DNA of 64,000 bases from Leucoraja ocellata (Eukaryota), in NCBI GenBank assembly GCA_036785375.1, contig JAWMAR010000105.1, positions 2,418,001 to 2,482,000 on the forward strand. The letters are read 5' to 3'. Positions 5,267 through 60,250 of the stretch are shown here, one piece after another. A program made the position numbers and the translations under genes. The notes beneath the pieces were generated by a model. The model saw nothing but the letters and a program-made list of their open reading frames with translations. It was not told the DNA's origin and did not search any database. The stretch's first letter is position 1; every line of letters starts with the position of its first letter.

Positions 5267-5520
5267 AGTGCTGGAGTAACATGGTGGGTCGGGCAGCATC
5301 TCTGGAGATAAAGGACTGGTGAAGTTTCTGGTTCAGACCCTTCTTCAGACTTATTATTCACCAGGTGGCTCTTGACAACCTAACTGCTAAAATCATAAGT
5401 CTGAAGAAGAGTCCCGACCCAAAACGTCACCTATTCCTTTTCTTCAGAATGCTGTCTGACTCGCTGAGCTACTCCAGCTTTTTGTCGATCTTTGGTTTAA
5501 ACCAGCATCTGCAGTTCCTC
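5267..5520. mobile_element. Inverted pair of PLE terminal repeats with two hammerhead motifs
   Basis: Antisense arm 5267-5354, 40-nt spacer, sense arm 5395-5520 (ataagt-ctgaaga...aaaacgtc-acctat). Confidence 0.8.
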
Positions 5521-6325
5521 CCATCTCTTATGCTATGTACTACCCGACTCTGGAATTACTGAATGAAAATCTAGATATATGCTTTCTCCTTGGATTTGAG
5601 AGATGTGTGCTGCCATACAATTTATTTTTAATGTTGTAGTTTTCAAACTGCTGATTCATTCTGAAGATTTCTGGTTTACTCCCAAAGTAATCCACCTACA
5701 GCTAGATGCTAGAAATTTGCTGGGCAGCTAATAACTAACCACAGGCTGGGCATTTTCAATAGCATTTGGTGTTTGGATAATGCAAAGTAATTTGATCCAT
5801 CCATCAAAATATTTTTTTTTGCAGGGTGAATGATATTGGAAGCCATTATCACCATTTCCTACAGGTTTGGATGTTTTGAATGCTCTCAGGGGCTCAGTTA
5901 TTAGACTAAAGTGCAAGCATTAGACTAGACTAATTTAATAATCCAGACTCTGTGCAACGCATGACTTTAGCAGCTAGGTTGTCAAGAGTCACCAAATGAA
6001 TAATAAGAGCTCTGGGCCCAGACAAGAAAAGTTGTGTATTTCAGTCAGGCCATCAGTACTTGAAGTCTTGTGGGGTGGTATTCAGATTTGAATGTACATA
6101 ACCATAATGCAGCCCCTCATGGGTTTGGTACTGATGTAATCCTAGCACTTTGCTGTAGACAAATGTTTAAAGCTTGACTGGAGTTGGCGAGGAATTAAAA
6201 ACCAAATACATAAATCAAAGATGACGTTGGCAAGGCGGACGGATGGTGGTCAGAATGGGTTTCGAAGAGGATTTGGGGCTTGGGGAGAACTTCAAGGTTT
6301 TGAAGGTGAAGCTGGCTGTTGTGGG

Positions 6326-7106
6326 GAAAAAAGGTAGCCACCATTTATTATCTAAATGGTGGCCGATTAGGAAAGGGGGGGATGCAGCGAGACCTGGGTG
6401 TCATGGTACACCAGTCATTGAAGGTAGGCATGCAGGTGCAGCAGGCAGTAAAGAAAGCGAATGGTATGTTAGCTTTCATTGCAAAAGGATTTGAGTATAC
6501 AAGCAGGGAGGTTCTACTGCAGTTGTACAGGGTCTTGGTGAGACCACACCTGGAGTATTGCGTACAGTTTTGGTCTCCAAATCTGAGGAAGGACATTATT
6601 GCCATAGAGGGAGTGCAGAGACGGTTCACCAGACTGATTCCTGGGATGTCAGGACTGTCTTATGAAGAAAGACTGGATAGACTTGGTTTATACTCTCTAG
6701 AATTTAGAAGATTGAGAGGGGATCTTATAGAAACTTACAAAATTCTTAAGGGGTTGGACAGGCTAGATGCAGAAAGATTGTTCCCGATGTTAGGGAAGTC
6801 CAGGACAAGGGGTCACAGCTTAAGGATAAAGGGGAAATCCTTTAAAACCGAGATGAGGAGAACTTTTTTCACACAGAGAGTGGTGAATCTCTGGAACTCT
6901 CTGCCACAGAGGGTAGTTGAGGCCAGTTCATTGGCTATATTTAAGAGGGAGTTAGATGTGGCCCTTGTGGCTAAGGGGATCAGGGGGTATGGAGAGAAGG
7001 CAGGTACGGGATACTGAGTTGGATGATCAGCCATGATCATATTGAATGGCGGTGCAGGCTCGAAGGGCCGAATGGCCTATTCCTGCACCTAATTTCTATG
7101 TTTCTA
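6326..7106 (+). mobile_element. Young 5'-truncated CR1/HER1-like LINE (ORF2 C-terminus + 3'UTR)
   Basis: Open frame with RDLGV, LYRVLVRPHLEYCVQFWSP, LEFRRLRGDLIETYKI, TRGHSL, FFTQRVVNLWNSLP; 3' hairpin ggtgcagg...cctgcacc and ttctatgtttcta tail; candidate TSD gttgtggg (6318-6325)/gtcgtggg (7107-7114). Confidence 0.95.
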
Positions 7107-16115: not shown

Positions 16116-16148
16116 ACTGAAACTGTTGAAACTGAACAAGGTGTTAGA

Positions 16149-16235
16149 AGGGTTTCGGCCCGAAACGTTGCCTATTTCCTTCGCTCCATAGATGCTGCTG
16201 CACCCGCTGAGTTTCTCCAGCTTTTTTGTGTACCT
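16149..16235 (+). mobile_element. Young short PLE terminal-repeat insertion, truncated inside the hammerhead
   Basis: agggtttcggcccgaaacgttgcctatttccttcgctccatagatgctgc...tgtgtac; 11-bp TSD aaggtgttaga (16138-16148 / 16236-16246). Confidence 0.88.
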
Positions 16236-17124
16236 AAGGTGTTAGACTTGATGCTTTGTTAACTTCGGCTGGGTGGTTATTATTCATTTTTTTCCCCACA
16301 TTGTTAGTTATGCGAGCTGTGTGACATTTAGATTTTGGATGTTTTAAGCAGCGGTTTATTGTGGTGACTTAATTTGTTGGGAGGGGTTGGCAGGATGATC
16401 ATTTTTCAACACTACAATATACAAATCACCAAGTTTTGAGAACTTGGATAAGAAGTGGGTTGCACATGTGTGAACAATGCAAATCCTACAACCTACTTCT
16501 TATCCAGTTCCCTAAAACCTGATTAAAATCTTCAATTCAGGACCTTATTTATTTGCATTTAAATTGCTTCTCTGCTTCTAGAATAAGCGGAAGTTATTTG
16601 TATATTATTCCAAATGAGAACTGACAAAGACTAGCTCTATAAGCTTTCAATTAAAGTAGTGAACACAACCTGTGCCTTGCAGCCTGTGGTTGTATTAATC
16701 AGATTGGCTTGGGGCCTGTTTTCAATCTTGATGTAGATCTATCATTGCTGTCTGCTGTGGAACAATTCATCCATACTGCCAGTTGTGTAATTTATACATG
16801 TCAAGTTTTTTTTTGTTCCTGGATATCGAATTTGGGGAAGGAGAAGCAGTTTGAGGATGAGGTGACTTTTTTAATCCTGTATTGGAGCTTCTTATCCAAT
16901 TGCTAATTGGATCATGATCCTGTATTTTTGACCGTAAGCCCAGGAATTTAGAAGTCAATATTACTGCTGCCATTGCTGATGTCTACTTGGTTGGGGCTCT
17001 GGGTTGAATTTTTAGTTGCACCATGCATTTTTTCAACTGCTCTGTGGCATAGTATTTGCAGTGCAAAACTGGGACACCTAATCCAGTAGTAAGTGTTTCA
17101 CCTTAACACTTGATGTTGAAGTCA

Positions 17125-35294: not shown

Positions 35295-35512
35295 CTATCT
35301 TTCTCTCTCTATCCCCTTCCCTTCTAAGTTCTCCCACCAGTCTTACTGTCTCCGACTACATTCTATCTTGGTCCTGCCCACTACCCTGACTATCCCGCCC
35401 ACTCCCCTGACATCAGTCTGACGAAGGGTCTCAACTTGAAACGTCACCCATTCCTTCTCTCCAGAGATGCTGCCTGTCCCGCTGAGTGAGTCAAACATTT
35501 TGTATCTATCTT
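35295..35512 (+). mobile_element. PLE 3'UTR plus terminal repeat
   Basis: Pyrimidine-rich UTR, then catcagtctgacgaagggtctcaacttgaaacgtcacccattccttctctccagagatgctgcc. Confidence 0.8.
35414..35449 (+). ncRNA. Minimal type-I hammerhead ribozyme motif, core intact, sense to pard6a
   Basis: CUGACGA (35418-35424), extra A, weakened helix II, GAAAC (35438-35442), GUC cleavage triplet (35443-35445). Confidence 0.6.
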
Positions 35513-42053: not shown

Positions 42054-42946
42054 GTGCAGGAAGGAACTGCAGATGCTGGTTTATACCGACGATAGATGCA
42101 AAATGCTGGAGTAACTCAGCTGATCAGGCAGCATCACTGGAGAGAAGGAATGTGTGATGTTTCTGGTCGAGACCCTTCTTCGGAATCTGAAGTCTGCATG
42201 TCTTTCAGAGTCTAGAACAGGGGTGGGGAACCTTTTCATGTTGGAATGCCGCATTAAGCTAGCTGTAATCTAATAAGCCCGCAGCCAAGAAACTTAAATT
42301 AGATATACTTCAAAATGTACATTATTTGGTAAACAAGTCTAACTACTATGTACTAACTTCAAGAAAATGAAAAAAAATTGTTAATTCTAACGTTAATTAA
42401 CCTTTTAATGACTTTGTTGTGACTGCTCTTTGTGGGAAAACATTTGAATATTTGGTTGCAACATGGAGGTACGCAGTTTCAGCTGATCTTCTAGATGAGT
42501 GTCTGTCATTTGTGACCTTAAGGGCGTCCTGATTTGGGTTGGGTAGGAGAATGTAGATTTGCAGCAATAAGCGGTTGAAAAGCAAGAAAGCATTTTCCGT
42601 GCATGTCAAAGTTAACGTACATTCTAGAGTGAGCATAACAGGTGTTAAAATAGCCCTCATGACTTACTAATGTTTGAATTAGTTGAATCTTCTTTTACGA
42701 TTAAAATAAAAATAATAAAAGATGAACAAAAACATATTAATAAAAATAAAAGGATTTGTTCCACAAAATTTGGATTCCTTCAAAAGGCCGCACTTAATGG
42801 CCTAGAAGGCCGCATGTGGCCTTAAGGCCGCAGGCTCCCCACCCCTGGTCTAGAGTCTGATGAAGGGTCTCAACCCAAAATGTCACCCATTCCTTCTATC
42901 CAGGGATGCTGCCTGTCCTACCTACTGAGTTACTCCAGCATTTTGT
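42054..42946. mobile_element. Inverted PLE terminal-repeat pair split by a hAT insertion
   Basis: Antisense arm 42054-42185, sense arm 42855-42946; TSD gtctatggat(g/a)atagtt at 42037-42053 / 42947-42963. Confidence 0.8.
42218..42847. mobile_element. Non-autonomous hAT-Charlie DNA transposon
   Basis: 16-bp TIRs caggggtggggaacct / aggctccccacccctg (1 mismatch); 8-bp TSD gtctagaa / gtctagag fitting the Charlie NTCTAGAN target; subterminal ggccgca repeats. Confidence 0.9.
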
Positions 42947-44386
42947 GTCTATGGATAATAGTTTCTGTGTGGATACTTTCACCCCTTTTATTTAAGGGAC
43001 TAACTGCTGCTGGAGTACTGCAATAATTTGTGATATTCAACATGGAACAATATCAAATTTGGGTAATGAGTCAGTACCAACTATAAACCATCCATCCATT
43101 CCAAACCCTTGCCTGTTCAGCCCCATTTCTATCCACTTCTCCTGCCCTCATGCTTGATGTGGTGGAATATAGTGGTAACTCCAAGCACCAACTCCCAAGG
43201 TCGTGGTGGACGGTGTGTTGGATCTGAGGATCTTTTACCATCCTAAATACCAGAGGATGGGGCTTGTTTGACTGCAGTCGCTATGGGGTGACTGGAAGAT
43301 GCACCACAGCTTGATAACGGGGCCCAATCAGTTAGGATCAATTTGGGATGGGCAATTGGAGTACCATGCAAGATTTGTGCCAATGTCAAATAGAGATTCC
43401 AGTTATATAGATGTTTTCATCATGGTACAAATAAGGGAGGAGCTGAAAGAGGGATAAAGCCTGATGGCTATTTTTGTGCTTGAATGGGATTTGAATTTTC
43501 TAACCTGAACAAATTGAGTCTCAACTGACCAAGAAATGAAAAATTATTGAAATGATACATTTTTATGCAGCATTAAATTTTCAATGCTGAATAGAAAGTG
43601 TTTAATTTTGCACATGTATATTCCAGATTAATGACAACACACTTCCACTCAAGGGTCTCAATTTTCAACCACTCTGTTGGTAATTTTGTAATCCAAGAAA
43701 ATTGTTTTCTCTTCCAAGAAAAATGAGCGTATTGTGGTTGCCTTTAACTAGATGTTTTAATATGAAATGCATGGAACCTGGTGTTTTTCCTGTCCTGCAG
43801 TGTAGTCAGTCAGAAGGGCCATGATGTGATGACTGAATAAAAGCTGCTCTAAAGAGATTCATTGCGATTTAAATCGTCTCTTGCAGTGCTGTCAATAAAT
43901 AATATCCTATTATGTCATCAATGAACTGCAGCATGGGAAGAGGTCACTTTGTGCATTTCAAGTACTAAATCTGATGTAACATGAATTTTAATTTTTTACT
44001 ATGATGTTGAAAAGCTACTTTATGAAATGTTACTAATCGCATCTGAGAGTAATGTTAGATCTAAATGCATGCTTCAGTCAGCTGAGCAGTTCAAATTCTG
44101 GAATTTACAGCAGCAGTAGACAGTTTAATGATATGAACAGAAATCAAATGACATTTATCTTCCCCTCAAATTGTCAGCTATTGCTTTAGCAAATCAGACC
44201 ATAAAATAATTCAGCCATGTTCTTTAGTGGTCTGGCAGAGTATTAGTTGCAACAATTATCTGACACTCAAATTAACAACAAGTTATCAACAACTTCAACC
44301 ATTTCAAGAATTTTTAGCCGAAGGATCTGAAACATAATGGGTGGTTTTGCACCGGGATAGACTGGCTGTCGGGCACCAGTTGAAGT

Positions 44387-44568
44387 GTACACAAAAAAGC
44401 TGGAGAAACTCAGCGGGTGCAGCAGCATCTATGGAGCGAAGGAAATAGGCAACGTTTCGGCCCGAAACGTTGCCTATTTCCTTCGCTCCATAGATGCTGC
44501 TGCACCTGCTGAGTTTCTCCAGCTTTTTTGTGTACCTTCGATTTTCCAGCATCTGCAGTTCCTTCTTA
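44387..44568. mobile_element. Young palindromic PLE terminal-repeat insertion
   Basis: 74-bp arms (44387-44460 / 44462-44535), 1-nt centre, 1 mismatch; 15-bp TSD accagttgaagtgta (44375-44389 / 44569-44583). Confidence 0.92.
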
Positions 44569-45365
44569 ACCAGTTGAAGTGTAATTGATTGTGAGATGAG
44601 GTACTGAAGAGGGAAGGAGCAGCGACTAGTGATCCCAAACGCAGTATATTTCTTAAATACCTCAATCTGCTTTTAGTGTGCAATCTAAATTTTGCTTGCT
44701 TGCATTAGGGAGCTCTTCCTCTAATTAAAGTAGTACTATGGCTGTGTGTATTTGGGGGTAGTTGGAAGAGGGGTGATAAGAGAATGTAACTGGACCTGAA
44801 ACTTGGACATTTATGTGTCCTTTATACAAATGTTTTCCATGAAGATGTGACCATCCCTAGGTATTTTCCAGTGTATTTTGGATGGTAGTGTATCCTGCAA
44901 TATTGTATTCATTTTACTGAGAACAAATATTTCTGACTCTCCTGGAATCTAAATTGAACATAAAAGAAAGATTTGGAAGATGAATCTGTCTTTTGCTCCC
45001 TCGGTATTACAATTCTCTATGGGTTTTACCAAGATAAGTGATTCTCCCCTTTTGATCATTCAATATATCTATATCGATAAAATGAACTTAATGCAATGCC
45101 AAATTTAAACTTCACGCTAAGCTAATACTTTAAGTTCTTAATATAAACCCAACAAACAACCCTACTACAACCAAATCTCTGCCACATTCTGGCTAGGTTT
45201 TAAGGAGAGTTCTAACACCAGCTAAATCTGGTGGAAATATTTATTCTCTCCGATTAGGACGTGAGATAAGTGCTGAATGCTTTTGTTTTGATTTGATTTC
45301 CTTTTTAAATGAAAAGCTCAAATGTTACTTCAGAAATCTAACCAAACATTTGCATCTTTCTGCAG

Positions 45366-46213
45366 CTGAAGGTGACTGTGGGGCGTTTGGAACCAATTCT
45401 CTCCTACGCAAGAAGAAAGGTCTCCATGTGCTGCGACCTGTCTATCACAAGTCAAAGCCTCACATCTTGATTGGAATGCCGCAGGATTTCCGACAGATCT
45501 CTTCCATTATTGACGTGGACATCCTTCCAGAAACTCACCGCAGAGTCCGTCTTCACAAACACGGCTCTGACAAACCACTTGGATTCTACATTCGCGACGG
45601 GGTGAGTGTACGGGTGGCCCCTCAAGGAGTGGAAAAGGTCCCAGGTATCTTCATCTCCAGGCTTGTCCGAGGTGGCTTGGCGGAGAGCACTGGCCTGCTT
45701 GCGGTGAACGATGAAATACTCGAGGTCAATGGGATTGACGTCGCCGAGAAGTCACTGGACCAAGTGACCGACATGATGGTAGCGAACAGTCATAATCTGA
45801 TCATTACCGTGAAGCCAGCAAATCAACGCAATAATGTCATTCGCAGCAGCAGGGCCTCTGGCAGTTCTGGTGTTTCCACGGACAGCAGTCCAAGCCAGCA
45901 CAATGTCATAGCTACTTCACACTATGCCAACCACTACAGTGCAGCTGAAGGAGAGAGTGAAGACGAAGGCGATCTAATAATTGAAAACGACATGCCATCA
46001 TACATTCCAAAAACAATGTTCCCAAACTATGTGAATGGAGATCTTACAAAAAAGCTGCAGCATAACCTCTCCCTAAACAGCCCACTGTTAGACAGCAAAG
46101 AAAACAAATATAAAGGGTCCTTAAACTCTTTGAACATACATAGTGACAGTCCCAGCAAAATAAGTTCAGGCCATGGAAACATGCGAGAAGATGGAACAAT
46201 GATAACACTATAG
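45366..46213 (+). CDS. pard6a: Last coding exon of Par-6 family cell polarity regulator alpha (pseudo-CRIB, PDZ, C-terminal tail)
   Basis: ORF 45293-46213 contains [44 protein letters not shown]...[30 protein letters not shown]...[47 protein letters not shown] and MMVANS match the alpha paralogue. Acceptor 'tttgcatctttctgcag|ctgaa' at 45365/45366 (phase 1). The first ~24 aa of the ORF track are intronic. Confidence 0.93.
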
Positions 46214-47450: not shown

Positions 47451-47665
47451 ATTAGAAGATAGGCACAAAGTGCTGGAGTAACTCAACGGGTCAGGCAGCA
47501 TCTCTGGAGGAAAAAGGATGCATAATGTTTTGGAAATCTGCAGAAGGGTCCCAACCAGAAACGTCACCCGTCCTTTTTCTCCAGAGATGCTGCCTGATCC
47601 GTTGAGTTATTCCAGCACTTTGTGTCTATCTTTGGTATGAACCAGCATTTGCAGTTCTTTTCTAC
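47451..47665. mobile_element. Fold-back PLE terminal-repeat pair in the putative 3'UTR
   Basis: Arms 47456-47520 / 47569-47632; TSD acatgttggta / acaggttggta (47440-47450 / 47666-47676). Confidence 0.85.
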
Positions 47666-50704: not shown

Positions 50705-52410
50705 CCAACATCAGCAGTTCCTTGTTTCTACCTAGTCCCGGAGTAACTCGGCTGGGTCATGGATAGGTGACGTTTCGGGTCTGGGGTAGAGGCAGGCAGA
50801 AGTACTGGATGAGGAGGGGGCAGCACAAAGCCTGGCAAGGTGGATATAGGTGAGAGGGTTGTTATTGATGGGCAGATGGTTGAACAAAGACCAGAGATGA
50901 ATAGACAAAGGATGTGAGATAAGGATAGAAGAGTTGAGAATTGTGAAGCCAGTGGTAAGAATTAAGATGGGAGGGGAGAAATGGGTGTGAGTAGAGGTGG
51001 GAAACGGGGAAGGGGGGGGGGGGGGGGAGGTTTGATTAGTTTCCTGAAATTGAATAATTCAATGTTTTTTTTGGGGGGCTGTAAACTTCCCAGGTTACAA
51101 CAAAGTTCTGGTCCTTCAGTCTGCATGTGGTCTCACTCTGGCAACGTAAGAGGTCAGGGACAGAGGGGTCAATATGGAAATGAGGGGACAATTAAAATGG
51201 TTAGCCTGCGGGAGATCCAGAAGGTGGACCGAGCGCAAGTGTTTGGTGAAACAGTTGCTGAGTCTACTCTTTGTCTCGTCGATGTAAAGGAGGTCACATC
51301 GAGATCAGTCAGACACCTCCTTATACTTACCCCTTGAGCCCACAGAGGGGTATGTGACATCCAGCACATTCTGGCATTTCTGCCATCCCCATGTGATCCC
51401 ACCACCAGTCATATCTTCCCATATCCACCACTTTCTGCCTTCCAGAGACTGCTTCTACAACTCCTATGTCGACTAATCCCAACCAATCCTTCCCGAGGTT
51501 TTTTCCCAGGAGATATAAGACCTGTACCTATACCTCCATCCTTGCAGCTATCCAGGGACCTCAACAGTCCTTCCAGGTGAGACAAAGGTTCATGTGCACC
51601 TCTCAGCTCATCTACTATGTACAGTGTTGCTGGTGTCTCCTTTACATCAGTGAGACTTGGACATCTTTTAGCCAAGCACTCTTACTCGGTCTGCTGGACA
51701 TCCCAGTTGCTAGCCATTTTAATTCCTTTCCCATTCTCATAATGGCCTTTCTATCTTGGGCCACATGCAAATTGGAGGAACAACACCTCATATTACACGA
51801 GGGCAGTGACAACCCAATGATATGAACATTGAATTCTCCAATTTTTGGTAACTTACCAAAACCCCTTCCACCTACATTCCTTCCTCTGGCTTCACAATTT
51901 GAAATTCTTCTATCCATATCTCACACCATTTTGTCTTTCATCTGGGAGCTTTATCCAAACATCTGCCTTTTAACCCCTCCCCAACCCCCCTCATCTGCAT
52001 CCATCTATCACTTCCCAGGATAGACAAAAAAAAAATGCTGGAGTAACTCAGTGGGACAGGCAGCATCTCTGGAGAGAAAGAATGGGTGACGGTTCGGGTT
52101 GAGACCCCTCTTCAGACTGATCAGAAGGGTCTCGACCCGATGTCACCCATTCTCTCCAGAAATTCTACCTGTCCTGAGTTACTCCAGCATTTTGTGTCTA
52201 TCTTCGATTTAAACCAGCATCTGCAGTTCCTTCCCACACATACTATCACTTACCAGGCATAGTCCTGCCCCTCCTCTCTTCTAGCTTTCTGCCCACCCAC
52301 CCAAATGCAATCCATCTGATTAAGGGACACAACACAAAATTCCACCTATCCGTGTTCTTCAGCAATGCTGCCAGATCCACTGAGTTACTCCAGCAATTTA
52401 TCTTTTCCTA
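50705..52410. mobile_element. Decayed Penelope-like element with head-to-head inversion and GIY-YIG remnant
   Basis: Sense part 51320-51850 encodes KTCTYTS..IQGPQQSFQVRQRFMCTSQLIYYVQCCWCLLYISET...PVASHFNS...KLEEQHLI (GIY-YIG: LIY...LYIxET); antisense copy of the same 3' end at 50740-51300; terminal repeats at both outer ends. Confidence 0.8.
52020..52242. mobile_element. Fold-back PLE terminal-repeat pair nested in the older PLE
   Basis: Arms meet at ...ttcagactgatcagaagggtctcgaccc; TSD ctatcactt(c/a)ccagg at 52005-52019 / 52243-52257. Confidence 0.8.
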
Positions 52411-58700: not shown

Positions 58701-59348
58701 TATTCCCCTTTTATATAGCACTGGCGGGTTTTCCTTTGATGCTTGCTGCCTTCAACTTTCCCTGTTTGGCCCAATGCTCCAAGCAATTTGCTCTCACCTT
58801 GCCTTGGGAACTCTGGAAAGCAGCTTACATTTCCTTTGCACATATCTGATTCTTTGACATCATATTCTTGTCTTTCCTAGTTCTAACAGTCTTGATTCCA
58901 CTAACAACATAACTGTATGAACACTAAATTCTCCAATTTTAGGTAACCCCACCAATTATTTATTTGTACTTTTCTTTACACTTCGCCCTTCTTTCTTGCG
59001 ACCAAATGCCTCCCAACCCCACCCCCCTCATCTTGGTGTGCAACCAACTCTCCACTATCCCACCCCTCCTCCTCTTCCACCCCCTCCCTTGGGCTTCACT
59101 TTTTACTCCTCTTACTCATCTTCTCTCCTTATCTGACACTCTTTTGTCTCTCTTTCATCTCTGGCCTTTGTCCAACCATCTGTTAATCAAAACCCTCCTC
59201 AGCTATATCCTCCTCTCACTTGCCAGACTGTGTCTCACCACCATCAAGAATACATCTAATGTATTCAAGAGAGTTAGATATAGCTCTTAGGGCTAACGGA
59301 ATCAAAGGATATGCGGAGATAGCAGAAACAAGGTACCAATTTTGGATG

Positions 59349-59440
59349 TTACACAAAAAAGCTGGAGAAACTCAGCGGGTGCAGCAGCATCTATGGAGCG
59401 AAGGAAATAGGCAACGTTTCGGGCCGAAACCCTTCTTCAG
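59349..59440 (-). mobile_element. Young 92-bp PLE terminal-repeat insertion
   Basis: 14-bp TSD accaattttggatg (59335-59348 / 59441-59454); same subfamily as 16149 and 44387. Confidence 0.9.
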
Positions 59441-59444
59441 ACCA
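59407..59444 (-). ncRNA. Minimal type-I hammerhead ribozyme motif, best-preserved copy
   Basis: Reverse strand: ggt-CUGAAGA-a-GGGU(UUCG)GCCC-GAAAC-GUU-gcc; intact core, UUCG-capped helix II, self-complementary AACGUU in place of helix III. Confidence 0.75.
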
Positions 59445-59973
59445 ATTTTGGATGATCATCCATGATCATATTGAATGGTGGTGCTGGCTCGAACGGCCGA
59501 ATAGCCTACTCCATCACCTATTTTCTATGTTTCTATCTTAGAAACATAGAAAATAGGTGCAGGAGTAGGCCATTCGACCCTTCGAGCCTGAACTGCCATT
59601 CATCTTGCTTCCAGCTCTCTCCCACCTACCACAATCGGTCTGAAGGGTCCCCACCCAAAACGTTGCCTATCCATGTCCTCCAGAGATGCTGCCTGACCTG
59701 CTGAGTTACTCCAGCACCTTGTGTTCTCCGCAATATTCCAGCATCTGCAGTTCCTTGTGTCTATGTAAGACATTAACTCTGTTTCTCTTTCCACAGATGC
59801 TGCCTGACCTGCTGAGTATTTCCAACATCTGATGTCCATACTGTTTTTCATTTCCAGCATCCATAGTATTGTTTTTGATTTTGACTTTAGCTGTTGCACG
59901 GCATCCAAGTCTTTGTTAATTCAATTCAAGTCAGTCATATTAAAGTACAATAGGGACCTGGTCCATTGGGGAA

Positions 59974-60250
59974 GTGTAGGAAGGAACTGCAGTATCTGGT
60001 TTAAATCGAAGATGGACACAAACGCTGGAGTAACTCAGCAGGTCAGACAGCATCTCTGGAGAAAAGGAATAGGTGACGTTTTGGGTCGAGACCCTTCTTC
60101 AGACAGAGTTAGGGGAAAGGGAAATAAGATATACAAGGTGATATAGAGAGATATTGAACAAATGAATGAAAGATATGCAAAAAAAGTAACGTTGATAAAG
60201 AAAACGGGCCATTGTTAGCTGTGGTCTAGGTGAGAACAAGTTATTCAGAT
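59974..60250 (-). mobile_element. PLE terminal repeat plus 3'UTR
   Basis: gtgtaggaaggaactgcag...aggtgacgttttgggtcgagacccttcttcagac. Confidence 0.8.

Follow-up and report, generated by a model that had tools for sequence, protein, structure and literature searches.

The 92-bp insert at positions 59349..59440 (minus strand) of the window, the 64,000-nucleotide stretch of DNA analysed here, is very probably the 5'-truncated terminal repeat of a young autonomous Penelope-like element (PLE), and the reverse transcriptase (RT) and endonuclease (EN) of that element itself are likely to have inserted it. With +1 defined as the C of CUGA (window 59440, minus strand) and -1 as the preceding base, the unit corresponds to +1..+92 of the parental terminal repeat (pLTR), matches the unit junction of a parental array (locus L075) at 91 of 92 positions and ends at the first of the parent's 3' end points. 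An earlier, sequence-only reading had taken it for a separate tiny non-coding retroposon, a view that finds no support here, the same 92 bp being the terminal repeat of a 3,985-bp ORF-bearing element; the recent mobility that it proposed is upheld.

The unit is enclosed by a perfect 14-bp target-site duplication (TSD; 59335..59348 and 59441..59454), as had been claimed, and interrupts the 3' end of an abundant LINE-like repeat (59255..59545, plus strand) that we take to be CR1/HER1. Since this host repeat is uninterrupted elsewhere in 46 of the 54 left/right flank pairs examined (projected gap -14 or -15), the 92-bp unit is an insertion. The suggested start exactly at CUGA comes near but carries a 2-nt ambiguity, as the first two minus-strand bases of the second TSD copy (GT) double as the parent's -2/-1. 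An ORF end resembling the host repeat is located at window 6310-7017, where no Pfam match was found for it, and a PDZ-domain exon (window 45197-46213, plus strand; Pfam E=3e-12), which we assume to resemble the last exon of a Par-6 gene, lies about 13 kb upstream of the insertion.

The parent was found, through the regular spacing of hits, as 3,985-bp units repeated head to tail at G000:C1:8664.5-8674.3 kb, an array bounded by its own 14-bp TSD. One unit contains an intact ORF of 1,234 aa (L075:4334-8038 = G000:C1:8668634-8672338, minus strand), usable for in vitro work, and the neighbouring unit is frameshifted; the ATG is positioned at +165, downstream of an optional tail. The encoded protein has a long Pro-rich region between its N-terminal helical part and the RT, matches RVT_1 (Pfam E=1.4e-6, just below the gathering cut-off) and C-terminal GIY-YIG (E=1.3e-3, below the gathering cut-off), and shows the RT motifs DKG, QxxGxxMG and YIDD, the endonuclease motifs LIYCVRCSRCQQIYIG, RFAEH and QHF together with LIY-CxxC-YIG and two His (CCHH), and a CX4CxxC linker between RT and EN (CGRSRCNTC at aa 1101). 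Its Atlas neighbours (0.98) bear RVT_1 and GIY-YIG, and a PDB search by sequence returned nothing at E<0.26. Judged from these motifs by the criteria set out in PMC8557442, the parent is an EN+ PLE, and the CX2-5CxxC linker criterion given there assigns it to a putative clade of Neptune or Nematis type. The traits of EN+ PLEs are present in the form of tandem and partial-tandem pLTRs, inverted copies, an optional 30-40-bp tail and TSDs, and many copies run upstream into a common C-rich sequence.

The minimal type-I hammerhead core occupies 59413..59440 on the minus strand, as assigned from sequence, numbering and a constrained fold, and fits the published min-HHR consensus. Both the minus-strand reading (CUGAAGA-A-GGGU-UUCG-GCCC-GAAA-C-G-U-U-gcc) and its identification as a Penelope-type minimal hammerhead were confirmed, the intact core comprising CUGANGA (CUGAAGA, 59434-59440), a bulged A, helix II formed by GGGU/GCCC with its UUCG loop (59421-59432), and then GAAA, the C-G-U half of the palindromic 15.2-16.2 and U17 (U16.1-H17), with the cut predicted between 59413 and 59412. 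Its details agree in part with what had been described. Helix I does pair ggu with gcc over 3 bp at this locus (3' strand GCC at 59410..59412, with GGU at 59441-59443), but the ggu lies inside the TSD and is target DNA, while the parent-type helix I has only 2 bp in 28/28 copies retaining the parent's upstream TCAGT. The palindrome of helix III is present as the 4-nt ACGU rather than as AACGUU, because the latter would pair A14 with U17, which stays free in the established hammerhead numbering; the need for a helix III partner was rightly recognized, the monomer being without one. Helix II is capped by UUCG, but the loop is closed by U-G rather than C-G, and older copies have CUCG. The GUU triplet turned out not to be distinctive, as C-G-U-U is found in 12 of 44 rows examined from the 2014 supplement alignment (PMC4209133).

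A descriptor scan gave 132 matches versus 0 in the reversed sequence, which, the loci having been picked for the element, serves as a specificity control only, and in an Rfam covariance search, which returned hairpin look-alikes, the hammerhead models matched neither the window (E<=1) nor the parent junction (E<=10). From one subfamily to another, helices I and II change on one side of a pair (U-A to U-G), no compensatory pair was seen, and the parent's helix I is limited to those 2 bp. In computed folds the hammerhead-compatible structure costs +2.5 to +4.3 kcal/mol at the focal unit and +6.1 in the parent, and the core region in the free fold pairs with downstream pyrimidines. Published assays describe min-HHR monomers without cleavage and dimers with weak cleavage (PMC4209133), a dependence of the anole PLE ribozyme on its protein (PMC11167929) and, for Xenopus dimers, 8/9 without cleavage (bioRxiv 10.64898/2026.07.22.740005). 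The predicted hammerhead of the focal solitary copy is probably inert, and the motif may act within the multimeric RNA of the parent as a ribozyme that depends on dimerization or on protein.

The 31-nt core is represented by 25,986 exact copies in the genome (3.44 Gb searched) against 0 for the reversed control and is therefore not a product of chance, and the 35-nt 3' part by 77,304 exact copies; as counts of exact patterns, the genome counts given here include some point changes, as in the set of 5' ends at +29, where 10 of 30 are point changes or internal deletions. Two sister copies in the window, previously placed at 16149 and 44387, are indeed near-identical and lie at 16146 and 44388, but both are without CUGA. 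The former (16146..16236, plus strand) is 5'-truncated within the core and has an 11-bp TSD at 16138 and 16236, and the latter (44388..44567) is a head-to-head inverted pair with arms from about +11, a plus arm extending with the optional tail to about +125, and a 15-bp TSD at 44375 and 44569.

The ends of copies were characterized on contig C1 from its first 100 exact matches to the 3' part, which, once 14 segmental duplicates were left out, gave 86 independent copies: 31 long, 36 short (37 before one was re-classed by hand) and 19 inverted. Their 3' ends fall at about +93 or, in the tailed copies (32/86), at about +130. A TSD of at least 9 bp, with a mode of 14, accompanies 17 of 37 short copies, and none of that length was found nearby in 24 of 53. 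The 5' ends of the short copies are concentrated at -7..+4 (25/37), with 1/37 at +29, and three of the alignments overran into C-rich flank. Genome-wide, 14,995 of the 25,986 cores (58%) keep the parent's upstream CAGT and the other 42% stop within 4 nt upstream of CUGA, leaving the parent at -4 (2,468), at -3 (4,425) or nearer to CUGA (4,098); contigs from a related organism likewise show loose ends at -2/-3, and in its RNA reads, from libraries poorly suited to the purpose, neither the starts nor the ends of molecules pile up. The predicted cut has no 5'-end peak, a purine preceding +29 in 1,004 cases, +28 in 487 and +31 in 998. Thirty loci with GGT comprised 24 short copies, 5 inverted ones and 1 long copy with a point change, and helix-I length in truncated copies was left aside since these loci had been picked for GGT. 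The parent's -5..+4 reads TCAG-T-CTGA, which forms a dyad with its centre at the hot spot of 5' ends and fits both initiator-like and splice-acceptor-like motifs.

Several simple accounts of the 5' ends were set aside. A cap-derived G at the 5' junctions is not supported, as G is not enriched before the 5' ends (1,693/4,425 at -3), which thus bear no cap signature; a distance ruler setting the 5' end is contradicted by tailed and untailed copies ending at the same place; and an intron like that of D. virilis, which would here reach from the stop codon of the ORF to CAG|U, was rejected as its donor is not conserved (GCTAGC in 6/17) and as no such joint occurs among the 15 listed of 57 RNA-read joints of the related organism.

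In the mechanism proposed for the truncated copies, the endonuclease would nick the target and the RT would start inside the RNA at about +93, as described in vitro for the anole PLE (PMC11167929). The RT would then copy back through the uncut hammerhead and run off the RNA 5' end upstream of CUGA, a step that stands jointly with the existence of such an RNA end, and repair would close the remaining end via microhomology. The RNA 5' end itself could arise from transcription starting at the Inr-like TCAGT or from an exonuclease stopping at the protein-bound fold.

Whether the pile-up acts on every passage was approached with a 29-nt pattern lying just past the tail in the 5' UTR of the youngest subfamily, which has 153 matches, 60 loci being examined from the first 100 listed. 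Among these, 27 (26 independent) pass +1 into the ORF, with 5' ends ranging from -16 to beyond -1,370, and four start before reaching the hammerhead (+81 to +120). None of the 26 independent 5'-complete loci stops at -6..+11, the chance of which at 42% per pass would be 0.58^26 = 7e-7, so that the 5' pile-up is not a stop on every passage; the notion of a second pass is inferred, as the 5'-complete loci were traced over no more than the first 1.5-1.7 kb or so of the ORF. The explanation that we lean towards, by a small measure, is that the pile-up marks where short templates physically end, the RNA 5' end lying directly before CUGA. The same first-pass restriction would also be expected if the protein gripped the hammerhead region of the repeat in which it starts and the RT dropped the template after copying that region, with no RNA end involved, an explanation that we regard as rather unlikely but as the main rival. 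Such a fall-off agrees with the lack of a cap-G excess and with the clustering of inversions and short template jumps at the same site, and the anole protein is described as binding the corresponding region and aiding the hammerhead (PMC11167929). The L225 array described below repeats the exact +1 junction three times, which suits a fixed RNA end or a circle better than a fall-off. Moreover, where an obstacle stalls the RT, this usually happens at the obstacle's 3' edge and not, as would be needed here, at its 5' edge.

Another 29 of the 60 loci connect x, a position early in the ORF, with y, a position close to the 3' end of the element. These deletion-unit loci are insertions in their own right by the measure of their flanks, a TSD of at least 9 bp being found in 22 of 27 testable loci versus 3/702 mismatched flank pairs (L256 and L265 were left out of this test as their ends lie outside the locus). 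All 29 junctions are distinct; x falls at +264..+268 in 12 of the 29, these junctions being mostly blunt, with 0-2 nt of microhomology, and y at -6..+4 in 4. Position +267 of the parent (L075 ~3951, minus strand) is ORF codon 35, and the next bases are AC, not GT. Several loci repeat one junction 2-4 times with periods of about 200-370 bp, yielding TSD-flanked perfect tandem arrays of 200-370-bp units (L200, L205, L210, L216, L225, L228, L237, L256, L259 and L266), most of whose units include the whole hammerhead; examples are located at G000:C68:1252.1-1253.0 kb, C13:10639.1-10639.9 kb and C205:4350.5-4352.0 kb. In six arrays (L200, L210, L225, L228, L256 and L259) there is no overlap between the partial unit that opens the array and the one that closes it, and these arrays are therefore not the outcome of a single jump plus unequal crossover; from this we infer that the RT crossed the same junction at least twice.

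The mini-arrays resemble products of rolling-circle reverse transcription whose junctions lie elsewhere than at the ribozyme site, and they fit a circular or fixed-end RNA without ribozyme-made ends. The combined scheme, in which the RT would start internally on short RNA pieces, run to the RNA 5' end at the hammerhead's edge and there either quit (leaving the ~11,000 stubs) or cross to the RNA 3' end, often at +267, with repeated rounds producing TSD-flanked 200-370-bp retrozyme arrays in one step from circles or fixed-end RNAs uncut by the ribozyme, is offered tentatively, at somewhat below an even chance.

These junctions also bear on the model of PMC4209133, in which the RT would copy either the product of hammerhead cleavage or a circle closed by ligation at the cut. 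The youngest ORF-bearing copies have an intact core and full-length tandems exist, as that model would have it, and a circle religated at +28/+29 would be scarless and hence compatible with the long copies. However, cleavage products as template are made less likely by the lack of a genomic peak at the cut site, the 5' end being at +29 in only one of the 37 short copies, and none of the 29 deletion-unit junctions has its 5' side at +27..+31; the uncut RNA is, in addition, the main substrate reported for the anole PLE (PMC11167929). A template made by cleavage or by ligation at the cleavage site is accordingly improbable.

An independent, SINE-like ribozyme retroposon, whose short copies would be transcribed, copied in trans and maintained as their own lineage, is more doubtful still. 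It could account for the ~11,000 cores that leave the parent within 4 nt of CUGA versus the 153 matches to the 5' UTR of the youngest subfamily, for the abundance of short copies in the related organism's RNA, mostly as parts of other transcripts (95% of the reads continue into unlike sequence), and for 2 of 53 short copies with a distant TSD candidate separated from the copy by ~0.8-1 kb of non-element DNA. Against it stand the identity of 91/92 to an intact ORF-bearing element, the position of both ends away from the ribozyme cut, the monomer's lack of a helix III partner, and the scarcity of any sign of a separate lineage: no short-only variant occurs among the five commonest 3' variants, each of which includes short and long copies (8/11, 8/7, 4/6, 6/1 and 4/2, respectively, among the 86 copies), and only one pair of the 53 short copies has a common 5' flank. 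One of these five variants (6/1, with 1 inverted copy besides) is skewed towards the short form. The favoured origin of the short copies is thus that the parent was truncated repeatedly, with some trans copying of short RNAs being possible. The two copies with distant repeats, at G000:C1:4824662 (L110) and C1:5541353 (L120), have a 20-21-bp repeat 0.8-1 kb upstream with non-element DNA between and are possible candidates for 5' transductions.

The arrangement of the focal unit is a known one, that of an ordinary truncated PLE end with a minimal hammerhead. Minimal hammerheads in PLE repeats, including the fish Neptune and Poseidon, and widespread solitary copies were described in 2014 (PMC4209133), PLE tails, inverted copies and solo pLTRs elsewhere (PMC3846280, PMC8557442), and, for the D. 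virilis PLE, an internal promoter as well as an intron that ends at helix I (PMC2377424, PMC4209133). As presented in PMC4209133, min-HHRs share with the focal unit the CUGANGA core, the extra base before helix II, G10.1-C11.1, the palindromic 15.2-16.2, the absence of helix III and the occurrence mostly as solitary copies from truncated PLEs; the present family differs in a helix II of 4 bp, a helix I of 2 bp, whose shortness recalls that of D. virilis, and ~26,000 exact cores. No shark or ray row is included among the chordate rows within the 44 examined from the supplement alignment of that paper. Poseidon_Ac of Anolis carolinensis, as reported in PMC11167929, likewise has two internal end points about 35 nt apart that give an optional tail, a hammerhead upstream of these points and no sign of cut RNA as template, but its ATG lies inside the hammerhead, whereas the ATG is downstream of the tail here, at +165. 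Penelope and Poseidon lack, by the account of PMC8557442, the CX4CxxC linker, and the parent is further set apart from Poseidon_Ac by its long Pro-rich N-terminal part. The Neptune and Nematis EN+ PLEs of the same account share with it the C-terminal GIY-YIG with CCHH, the CX2-5CxxC linker, DKG, partial tandems, inverted 5'-truncated copies and the 30-40-bp tail, and differ in that the sampled copies here show no microsatellite targeting, the clade being assigned from motifs.

Non-LTR retrozymes derived from PLE pLTRs have been defined (PMC7229834), and the rare 200-370-bp arrays fit that definition as given there, unlike the focal unit, which is a solitary monomer between TSDs rather than a series of tandem hammerhead units. 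A recent preprint (bioRxiv 10.64898/2026.07.22.740005) lists non-LTR retrozyme families in one chondrichthyan and invokes local amplification by unequal crossover, whereas each array described here is a single insertion flanked by a TSD and has a junction of its own (29/29 distinct). Literature searches returned no paper specifically on a shark or ray PLE hammerhead, none on rolling-circle PLE arrays and none on the present family, which Repbase, Dfam or the preprint supplements may list.

With a family that is young and huge and has intact ORFs, the role of PLE hammerheads becomes readable from the genome and testable in vitro. The data speak against cut RNA as template and indicate a 5' boundary that is fixed at the edge of the ribozyme, and the arrays supply single-insertion evidence for the more-than-unit reverse transcription proposed in 2014, a mechanism with relevance to how animal retrozymes arose. 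What merits further work is the 5' boundary seen on the first pass only, together with the TSD-flanked mini-arrays.

Ten older pLTR remnants from related PLE subfamilies, with 70-80% identity to the parent, are also present in the window (sites include 2182-2572, 5270-5518, 35394-35487, 42060-42184, 47537-47657, 52033-52233, 59642-59754 and 59980-60115) and have, where readable, GUC triplets and CUCG loops. On contig C1, 14 insertion sites of ~0.2-1.2 Mb are repeated at 1.9-3.1 Mb in mirrored order and on the opposite strand, which reflects either an inverted duplication of large size or a haplotype that the assembly contains twice.
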